Part shown: positions 4,160 through 5,389 of the stretch, one piece after another
Numbering within the stretch: the first letter of the stretch is position 1
How the letters are laid out: each line of letters begins with the position of its first letter
Origin: a virus
Taxonomy: Duplodnaviria > Heunggongvirae > Uroviricota > Caudoviricetes
Length of the DNA stretch: 11,157 nucleotides
Strand: one strand, 5' to 3'
Virus record (IMG/VR): IMGVR_UViG_2703718825_000008
Notes under the pieces: model-generated
What the model saw: the letters and a program-made list of their open reading frames with translations, nothing else
Told to the model about the DNA's origin: nothing
Databases searched by the model: none
Position numbers and translations under genes: made by a program

Positions 4160-4186
4160 TGCCGCTGGCGCGGCATCCGGAAAAAG
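4160..4186 (-). terminator. Possible weak terminator after the solute-binding-protein gene
   Basis: 5-bp GC stem cgtcc/ggacg (4173-4186) with loop tgaa, followed on the minus strand by TGGATTCTTTTT. Confidence 0.3.
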
Positions 4187-4212
4187 AATCCACGTCCTGA
4201 AGGACGAGGATG

Positions 4213-4971
4213 TCAAGTGCCTTTCCTGGTCCAGCCATATTTTTTGAATGCAGGCGCCGCTTCATCGGTTTGTAGCCATTCTGCAAATCGACGGGTTTCA
4301 TCATTTGCATCCTGACGTACTGTAATGTTCATATCACGCCATATCACGTAGTCTGGCGCTATTTCCACGACATCACCAATTTCTGGATTACTGGCTGCCC
4401 AGTCAGCCCAGGTTATCCAGACATCTGCTCCAGGCTGATTCTCAAGAGCCTTACGTGCAGTTCCGCTATTGGGCGCATATAAAATAATATTTTTTCGGAT
4501 TGCGGCGACAGTTTCTATATTCCCTTTACGTCCGGCAATATCTTCCCAGACGCCAGTGCCTGATGTATTACTGGTACCACCACCATCATTAACAATTACG
4601 CCAATCCCAGGTCTGGTCAGGTCGTCAATACTCCGGATATTTTTAGGATTACCTTTCTTTACCAGTAAAATACTTTTTCGCAGATAAAGAGGCTGAATAT
4701 CTTTTTCACTGAAGCTGTCTTTATGGTCCCGAATGATAGCCAGAGCAGATTGTTCTGATGCGCCAAACAAGATATCTGCATTTTTTTTGGCATCTTCATT
4801 CCATTTGTTCTGTGGGCCGTAATGAACGTTCACTATAATACCTGTTTTTTCGGCATAAAGTTTGGCTGCATCAAGCAAGGCTGTATGCGGGCCACCAGGA
4901 CCATACAGATTGATATCAGCATAAGCAGCAGAAGACAGGAATATTAAAAAACCTGCCATTATGTTCCTCAT
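4213..4971 (-). CDS. Secreted periplasmic solute-binding protein (ModA-like fold), prophage cargo
   Basis: 252-aa ORF with AAGGAG 7 nt upstream. N-terminal signal peptide MRNIMAGFLIFLSSAAYA, and an internal glycine/Thr/Ser-rich stretch (IGVIVNDGGGTSNTSGTG). The gene is visibly AT-richer than neighbouring phage genes and is flanked by about 400 nt of AT-rich non-coding DNA. Confidence 0.65.
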   Translation of the reverse strand: MRNIMAGFLIFLSSAAYADINLYGPGGPHTALLDAAKLYAEKTGIIVNVHYGPQNKWNEDAKKNADILFGASEQSALAIIRDHKDSFSEKDIQPLYLRKSILLVKKGNPKNIRSIDDLTRPGIGVIVNDGGGTSNTSGTGVWEDIAGRKGNIETVAAIRKNIILYAPNSGTARKALENQPGADVWITWADWAASNPEIGDVVEIAPDYVIWRDMNITVRQDANDETRRFAEWLQTDEAAPAFKKYGWTRKGT

Positions 4972-5389
4972 AAAAAACTCCTTTTATTGGTTATCATGAA
5001 ATAAAGTTATAAACACTACAAATAATATATATTACATCCAGATAAACTTATCCGACTTTACCTCGTGCATAGCTTGTTATTTAAAGTCAACAAAATAAGG
5101 AAAATTATACGCATATTGAAGAGTATAAACCTTACATGTTGATTACATTTTTGTAATCAACATCCTGTTTGGAATAGCCAGCCTTTAATGGATAACTATT
5201 TCTGACAATGCAATGAGTATAATCAAGTCCATCTTCCACTGAGAATTAGAGGCGGCATGCTTTTTCCGGCTCTTGCCGGATATCCGTAATTGTCCATAAT
5301 CTGCAGATTTATACCTTCTGCATGACCTGTCAGCGAAAATTTGTCCGGTGTTTCTACGGGAATGACATCAAAAGTTACACGCACTCGCG

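Follow-up and report, generated by a model that had tools for sequence, protein, structure and literature searches.

Why would a prophage carry a lone gene for a secreted solute-binding protein, with no transporter genes for that protein to serve? The question arises from a stretch of 11,157 nucleotides of tailed-phage DNA (Caudoviricetes; IMG/VR record IMGVR_UViG_2703718825_000008), referred to here as the window, in which a first-pass annotation made before any database search had marked positions 4160–5300 as a low-GC insertion encoding a periplasmic binding protein. We find that the gene is almost certainly paa (also known as adfO; Z2053 of O-island 57), an already named virulence-associated gene that is well known for its link to adherence and is carried by a prophage of Shiga-toxin-producing and attaching-effacing Escherichia coli, and that there is no novelty in the gene itself. 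What its protein, Paa, does is a separate matter. Our preferred reading, to which we assign a probability of roughly 0.45–0.5, is that Paa would be a transporter-independent periplasmic binder of a small anion, which passes information or cargo to a partner encoded on the host chromosome, with the adherence phenotypes reported for the gene being at least partly indirect.

The marked interval holds a single real gene, an open reading frame (ORF) on the minus strand that encodes 252 amino acids (Table 1). The DNA of window positions 4000–5750 is 100% identical to chromosomal DNA of Escherichia coli O157:H7, O26, O103, O111 and other strains, on which RefSeq labels the gene ‘paa: AcfC family adhesin Paa’ (WP_001449026.1), and at least 80% of this segment is present in 573 of 5,426 complete E. 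coli genomes. Phage records of the PPompW series, some of which are joined to Shiga toxin 2a (Stx2a) phages, carry the gene at 99.9% DNA identity under the label ‘porcine attaching-effacing associated protein Paa/adherence factor AdfO’. Published work describes paa/adfO as always occurring together with the hok-like gene ckf (Z2054) of the same O-island (PMC8565820, PMC2749873, PMC10562709). The named gene and the gene of the window are the same and have the same neighbours (hokD/ckf, a fimbrial pseudogene and a DUF1627 gene); the gene itself shows no difference, whereas the adjoining DUF1627 copy in the window has a 202-bp internal deletion and a 1-nt deletion. By treating the gene as unnamed, the first-pass annotation had missed a known gene for which identical annotated DNA exists.

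Paa appears to be an exported-type protein. Its N terminus has a basic residue, a hydrophobic core at residues 4–12 and the sequence A-Y-A followed by D19, and the hydropathy profile, with no lipobox cysteine, is that of a predicted Sec signal peptide. The A-X-A motif stands directly before the family-conserved D-[IV]-N-L-Y-G-P-G-G-P-H, a junction that is kept in 28 family sequences. Cleavage before D19 is supported by the crystallized mature chains of PEB3, a relative from Campylobacter jejuni, because these begin exactly at the aligned residue. The Pfam profile SBP_bac_11 matches residues 20–247 over positions 1–226 of its 227 (E = 5.5e-34; 118.3 bits against a cutoff of 25). The predicted signal peptide and this full-length match agree with the lone secreted solute-binding protein proposed at first pass, and family assignment by hidden Markov model returned a binding-protein domain.

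Searches of the PDB with phmmer matched Paa to PEB3 (E = 1.2e-81 over Paa residues 11–248; 54% identity) and to AcfC of Vibrio cholerae (E = 3.5e-81 over residues 16–248; 52% identity). By homology, Paa belongs to the AcfC/PEB3/Paa family and has a class-II periplasmic-binding-protein domain that spans the mature protein. The fold is assigned through the solved PEB3 and AcfC structures; a single-sequence AlphaFold2 model was unusable (predicted local distance difference test 41, predicted template modelling score 0.31). The ModA-like fold that had been claimed holds at the level of the superfamily and no further: Paa scores 18.3 bits against the NCBIfam modA cutoff of 62.5, and its true family matches at E ~1e-81. 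Sbp, CysP and ModA are only distant superfamily relatives. The Sbp models gave 22.6 bits against a cutoff of 288 and 21.5 against 155.5, CysP gave 19.0 against 308, all NCBIfam binding-protein scores fell between 17.7 and 22.6 bits against cutoffs of 62.5–470, and phmmer aligned Paa to Sbp at E = 3.5e-4. These proteins share with Paa a superfamily and a Pfam clan, and their anion-ligating loop positions align with the invariant residues of the Paa family; Sbp, however, is about 60–80 residues longer than Paa, and in E. coli K-12 modA is followed by modB and modC, whereas paa has no adjacent permease or ATPase genes.

PEB3 (PDB 2HXW, 3FJ7, 3FJG and 3FJM) resembles Paa over the whole mature protein, in the signal-peptide junction, in an invariant NTSGT loop and in being encoded by a stand-alone gene. 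The two differ at the PEB3 N-glycosylation sequon D-F-N-V-S, where Paa has S-F-S-E-K, and in the location of the gene, which is chromosomal for PEB3 and prophage-borne for Paa; binding of 3-phosphoglycerate and phosphoenolpyruvate is known for PEB3 only. AcfC (VC0841 of Vibrio pathogenicity island 1; PDB 4JB7) shares the invariant loops with Paa and is likewise an orphan binding protein on a horizontally acquired virulence element with a link to intestinal colonization. Unlike Paa, AcfC has been shown to be periplasmic, to have a role in chemotaxis towards mucin and not to be an adhesin. The acfC gene is regulated by ToxT; the region upstream of paa is AT-rich, its own and unrelated to that of acfC.

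In a scan of relatives, the enterobacterial Paa clade stands nearer to homologues in metagenome-assembled genomes (MAGs) of gut anaerobes (70% amino acid identity for Mucispirillaceae and 73% for a goat-caecum Desulfovibrio; L008 7001–7720 and L009 2223–2918) than to Vibrio AcfC or Campylobacter PEB3 (50–53% in that scan; L017 and L019). Taken with the low GC content of paa at third codon positions (GC3), this closeness, measured as pairwise identities, hints at transfer of the gene among gut bacteria.

Conservation within the family is concentrated where a ligand might be held. An alignment of 28 family sequences has 52 invariant columns, which cluster in GPGGPH (residues 24–29), GP (52–53), FGxS (69–72), GNP (107–109), NTSGT (135–139), WED (142–144), SG (169–170) and DxWITWxDW (183–191). 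When aligned by hhalign to E. coli Sbp (probability 96%), S137-G138-T139 of Paa falls on S130-G131-G132, S169 on A173 and W188 on W192; the alignment to ModA (probability 85%) covers the N-terminal part only and places G27 on S12 and Q54 on S39. The Sbp and ModA residues aligned in this way occupy known anion-ligating positions. The N135-T136-S137-G138-T139 loop is the same in all 28 sequences, and its T136 and S137 correspond to T138 and S139 of PEB3, which reportedly have a role in ligand binding. A comparison of the putative pocket with those of ModA and Sbp, as suggested at first pass, therefore bears fruit for the loop positions, which align with invariant Paa residues, but not for the residue types, which differ (T139 against G132 of Sbp; G27 against S12 of ModA). 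Because the invariant loops fall on the anion positions of Sbp and ModA, the alignments argue that selection on Paa acts on a putative buried small-anion site.

The second line of evidence is the lack of a partner transporter. The first-pass annotation had noted no permease or ATPase gene nearby; there is none in the window, none anywhere in the 44-kb reference prophage PPompW_132418 when looked for, and plasmid contexts of paa (see below) contain no transporter genes. We examined relatives of Paa in one genome per species, which gave 25 loci, 24 of them with flanks, from about 23 species. They include Escherichia albertii, Citrobacter, Edwardsiella, Aeromonas, Vibrio, Campylobacter, Helicobacter, Francisella, Cetobacterium, Endozoicomonas, Elioraea and gut-derived MAGs (Mucispirillaceae, Desulfovibrio and Spirochaetes), and the gene contexts vary between genera. 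No ORF within 4 kb in the 24 loci had a Walker A motif together with an LSGGQ signature, and neither ABC_tran nor BPD_transp_1 was among the 25 most frequent Pfam families listed for the 149 ORFs within 3.2 kb, a list in which the rarest family had 2 members. Nor did any transporter emerge as a neighbour conserved across genera: DcuC-type carriers and S51 peptidases each accounted for 4 of the 149 flanking ORFs, and are taken to reflect within-genus synteny in the Campylobacter loci. As far as heuristic ORF calling can show, the relatives of Paa in general lack a partner transporter, as Paa does in this prophage.

The gene is also not confined to prophages. Eighty-five plasmid records match the segment 4000–5750, mostly IncF plasmids of porcine or bovine E. 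coli with a paa-like gene that is 86–89% identical to paa of the window in nucleotides and 92–93% in amino acids. The plasmid matches cover only positions 146–1166 of this query, so that what is shared is the coding sequence (CDS), the hairpins that follow it and about 190 nt of AT-rich DNA ahead of it. On the two plasmids studied, the paa-like gene stands alone, among repA, toxin–antitoxin genes, insertion sequence (IS) elements and the heat-stable enterotoxin gene sta1. The ratio of nonsynonymous to synonymous substitution rates between prophage and plasmid alleles is 0.07–0.13, and Paa is therefore under strong purifying selection in both settings. With an AT-rich region of its own upstream and hairpins downstream, paa is a single-gene cargo cassette (a moron).

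As the first-pass annotation had stated, the gene is low in GC: the paa CDS has a GC content of 0.439 and a GC3 of 0.348, against a window average GC of 0.484, flanks of 0.50–0.51 and GC3 values of 0.44–0.65 in five neighbouring phage genes. It is compositionally foreign to its neighbours. The claimed strong ribosome-binding site is likewise present, whereas the claimed upstream region of about 400 nt of AT-rich DNA shrinks to about 190–250 nt of AT-rich non-coding sequence (strictly 4972–5131, GC 0.263; generously 4972–5222, GC 0.279), the remainder being the decayed fimbrial gene. Within the cassette, a candidate −10 hexamer has no recognizable −35 element, and hence is absent from the output of the consensus promoter scan; the sole nearby match of that scan (5245–5216) lies inside the fimbrial pseudogene, outside the conserved cassette. 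A perfect palindrome, the strongest inverted repeat within positions 4100–5450, keeps its core in the plasmid cassettes and marks the upstream edge of plasmid homology; its centre would lie at about −52 relative to the transcription start inferred from the hexamer. The upstream region, compared for both palindrome and promoter, is not conserved ahead of the E. albertii, Citrobacter or Edwardsiella homologues, and therefore no conserved operator can be argued from comparison across genera. The palindrome is possibly an operator or a recombination scar.

Downstream of paa, the terminator that had been claimed corresponds to a candidate made of a first hairpin (4206–4193) that runs into a T-run (hairpin plus T-run, 4206–4181) and a second, perfect 7-bp hairpin (4176–4159). 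The 86-nt stretch 3′ of the stop codon has a predicted RNA folding free energy of −30.3 kcal/mol (z = −2.2). The hairpin region is mostly kept in the plasmid cassettes, with the first stem partly deleted in pCFS3246-1. In E. coli EDL933, RNA sequencing found paa to be induced by the contents of the bovine rumen and rectum while the prophage itself was not (PMC8524897), and according to the literature the gene is not Fur-regulated in this strain. Expression in the lysogen is probably autonomous, from the candidate cassette promoter, and silencing of the H-NS type is plausible because the upstream DNA is very AT-rich.

Table 1. Features of the paa locus and its immediate surroundings (window coordinates)
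Feature	Position	Strand	Basis
paa/adfO CDS	4213..4971	minus	ORF, Pfam, PEB3/AcfC matches, identical annotated DNA, dN/dS
Predicted Sec signal peptide, residues 1–18, MRNIMAGFLIFLSSAAYA, cleavage before D19	4918..4971	minus	Hydropathy and conserved junction
paa cassette of ~1 kb (upstream region, CDS and hairpins), common to the prophage and IncF plasmids of enterotoxigenic E. coli (ETEC)	~4153..5165	minus	Alignment boundaries
Shine–Dalgarno sequence AAGGAG, 6 nt before the ATG at 4971	4978..4983	minus	Read from the sequence; kept in both plasmid cassettes
AT-rich regulatory region of the paa cassette	4972..5165	minus	GC values; plasmid homology reaches upstream only to ~5165
Candidate −10 hexamer TATAAT, inferred promoter	5104..5109	minus	Perfect; same in the prophage and both plasmid copies
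Perfect 12+4+12 palindrome ATGTTGATTACA-aaaa-TGTAATCAACAT, candidate operator	5136..5163	none	Repeat search, 100% complementary
Two tandem hairpins 3′ of the stop codon, candidate intrinsic terminator	4159..4206	minus	Terminator scan, RNA fold
Decayed fimbrial-subunit gene	5132..5665	minus	RefSeq ‘fimbrial protein; frameshifted; internal stop’
hokD-type Hok/Gef toxin gene, downstream neighbour of paa, ckf (Z2054) of O-island 57	3722..3877	minus	Pfam HOK_GEF E = 2.9e-23; RefSeq hokD

We hypothesize that mature Paa acts in the periplasm, possibly being partly released or surface-exposed, and that it binds a small anionic, host-derived ligand without a transporter. The ligand would sit in an inter-domain cleft lined by five invariant loops, GPGGPH, GP(Q/E), NTSGT, SG and WITW; it could be either a phosphorylated C3 acid, by analogy with PEB3, or a sulfate or sulfated-glycan group of the type proposed for AcfC. 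Occupancy of the site may feed a chromosomal partner, such as a chemoreceptor, a sensor or a secondary carrier, and signalling through this partner would explain why adfO/paa mutants, as published, lose adherence and several secreted proteins more readily than would simple tethering to the host cell. A non-transport role had been suggested at first pass; Paa is not credited with classical transport in E. coli, and the scavenger and receptor versions of that suggestion are compatible with the AcfC and PEB3 literature.

The standing annotation, ‘AcfC family adhesin Paa’, points elsewhere, to a true surface adhesin that is exported by Sec, reaches the cell surface perhaps through type 2 secretion, and starts attachment ahead of intimin–Tir contact by direct binding to a host receptor (for example, sulfated glycans). 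In enterohaemorrhagic E. coli (EHEC), an adfO mutant shows reduced adherence to HeLa cells, and the literature likewise reports reduced adherence of paa/adfO mutants and a contribution of paa to attaching and effacing lesions, the latter in porcine enteropathogenic E. coli (EPEC) (PMC8565820, PMC10562709, PMC2749873); in an enzyme-linked immunosorbent assay, moreover, AcfC carrying a His tag bound to heparin, chondroitin sulfate and mucin (PMC5976639). Yet several proteins are also made or secreted in smaller amounts by that adfO mutant, which points to an indirect effect (PMC8565820). AcfC was periplasmic by fractionation, was needed for chemotaxis to mucin and did not act as an adhesin in cell assays, and PEB3 is described as a periplasmic glycoprotein (PMC5976639) and as a transporter component for metabolites of the 3-phosphoglycerate type (PMC12469816). 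Paa itself has no anchor (no lipobox, β-barrel, autotransporter or fimbrial features), and its invariant residues appear to form classical buried class-II anion loops rather than a surface patch. We therefore regard direct adhesion as unlikely.

Paa might instead be an accessory binding protein that docks in trans on a chromosomal ATP-binding cassette (ABC) importer, CysUWA for sulfate and thiosulfate or ModBC, and widens its range of substrates, which would make it a genuine part of a transport system. The distant homology to Sbp, CysP and ModA fits such a role, and in E. coli a single permease is already served by both Sbp and CysP. PEB3 is also reported to support growth on 3-phosphoglycerate (cited in PMC12469816). 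Importer binding proteins, however, would be expected to look different: Paa scores far below every NCBIfam cutoff for them, and no ABC genes were detected beside the family members at the 24 loci in about 23 species. We know of no docking partner in Vibrio or Campylobacter, and consider docking in trans quite improbable. A benefit to the phage, through superinfection exclusion or receptor masking rather than through interaction with the animal host, might be expected from the place of paa in a prophage early region with a Hok toxin gene adjoining, a position at which many morons serve the phage. The phage-exclusion role suggested at first pass is nevertheless unsupported: Paa matched no PADLOC family at E ≤ 0.01, its PHROG match is to a family of unknown function only, its close relatives occur on ETEC plasmids and at varied chromosomal loci in Vibrio, Campylobacter, Aeromonas, Francisella and others, and the published phenotypes concern adherence and colonization (PMC5976639, PMC8565820). 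This explanation seems to us very improbable indeed.

Several points weigh against Paa as a transporter-independent anion binder. The classical literature calls both Paa and PEB3 adhesins, and reduced-adherence phenotypes are on record (cited in PMC5976639, PMC8565820, PMC2749873). The ligand and the membrane partner of Paa are putative. The orphan status of the family was judged from 24 loci with heuristically called ORFs and from a Pfam summary limited to the 25 most frequent families. For the cassette, the consensus promoter scan found no sigma-70-like site within 4972–5165, and the terminator is a putative one, given that one of the plasmid copies has lost part of the first stem. A wider proposal is that the whole AcfC/PEB3/Paa family consists of transporter-independent periplasmic sensors, not adhesins, that have spread horizontally among largely animal-associated bacteria, each capturing a host phospho- or sulfo-anion and signalling through a chemoreceptor, sensor kinase or secondary carrier that the cell already has. 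We advance this only tentatively and think it rather unlikely.

The setting of the cassette is that of a lambdoid prophage. Window positions 281–11157 are 99.8–99.9% identical to PPompW_132418, a deletion of about 200 bp apart. The minus strand carries, in order, a cro/dicC-like gene, a YdaT-like gene, replication genes, the DUF1627 gene, a small hypothetical gene, the fimbrial pseudogene, paa, hokD, rem, DUF968 (ydfU), rusA, Q and three tRNA genes, with a dicA-like repressor gene divergent from this operon. The gene lies in the rightward early region of a Qin/DicA-type prophage (PPompW / CP-933O type), between the replication genes and the hokD–DUF968–rusA–Q block, an order that agrees with the early-right operon placement given at first pass. 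In sibling prophages, the interval from the DUF1627 gene to hokD contains QueH and DUF977, DUF551, or DUF4406/DUF7167 genes instead of paa, and is therefore a variable cargo slot. The other cargo of the reference prophage, the type III effector genes espO, nleG, espM and nleG, is at the far end.

Upstream of the cassette, the fimbrial pseudogene (GC 0.461) is 86% identical in nucleotides to an intact subunit gene in a chaperone–usher operon of E. coli NRZ103545, compared with which the copy in the window has lost segments of 10 nt and 5 nt, contains a stop codon and has had its 5′ end replaced. The intact homologue (L031 6963–7550) belongs to a PapB-regulated chaperone–usher operon beside a pgtABCP island for phosphoglycerate sensing and transport. 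A relationship between Paa and PgtC, the periplasmic component of the phosphoglycerate-sensing system, was considered and rejected (BLASTP E = 0.33); because PgtC is not homologous to Paa, we take the adjacency to be coincidental. It is still curious, PEB3 being reported to bind 3-phosphoglycerate.

Other parts of the window vary among related prophages. The Hok/Gef gene directly downstream of paa (3722–3934, minus strand) has a strong terminator (3653–3636), and a stretch of about 67 nt upstream of hok (4000–4066) matches Stx1 and Stx2 phages (933W, Sakai VT2) at 91%. The two deletions in the DUF1627 gene (5831–6362, minus strand), located at ~6144 and ~6084 by comparison with O157:H7 PV15-279 and PPompW_132418, leave two short ORFs (6126–6362 and 5831–6034), and this copy is therefore decaying. 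The tRNA genes that follow Q (351–591, minus strand), for Arg(tct), Lys(ttt) and Met(cat), are as in the PPompW phages; at the corresponding site, PV15-279 carries genes for tRNA-Arg, for tRNA-Ile and for a DNA methyltransferase, and this differing content marks the late-regulatory junction as mosaic. In the same prophage of PV15-279, an IS3 element of the IS1203 type splits the replication-gene region (L001 9392–10604), which is uninterrupted in the window (6396–7965).

In EHEC, atypical EPEC and porcine ETEC, paa/adfO is typed routinely as a marker of virulence. Its recognition here serves mainly to keep an established gene from being announced as new. A modest residual value lies in the putative buried anion pocket and in the relatives without ABC neighbours, which favour sensing or scavenging over the ‘adhesin’ label. 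If the sensor reading is true, a prophage of EHEC would supply its host with a ‘where am I’ cue, by which the lysogen would be guided to the mucosa.

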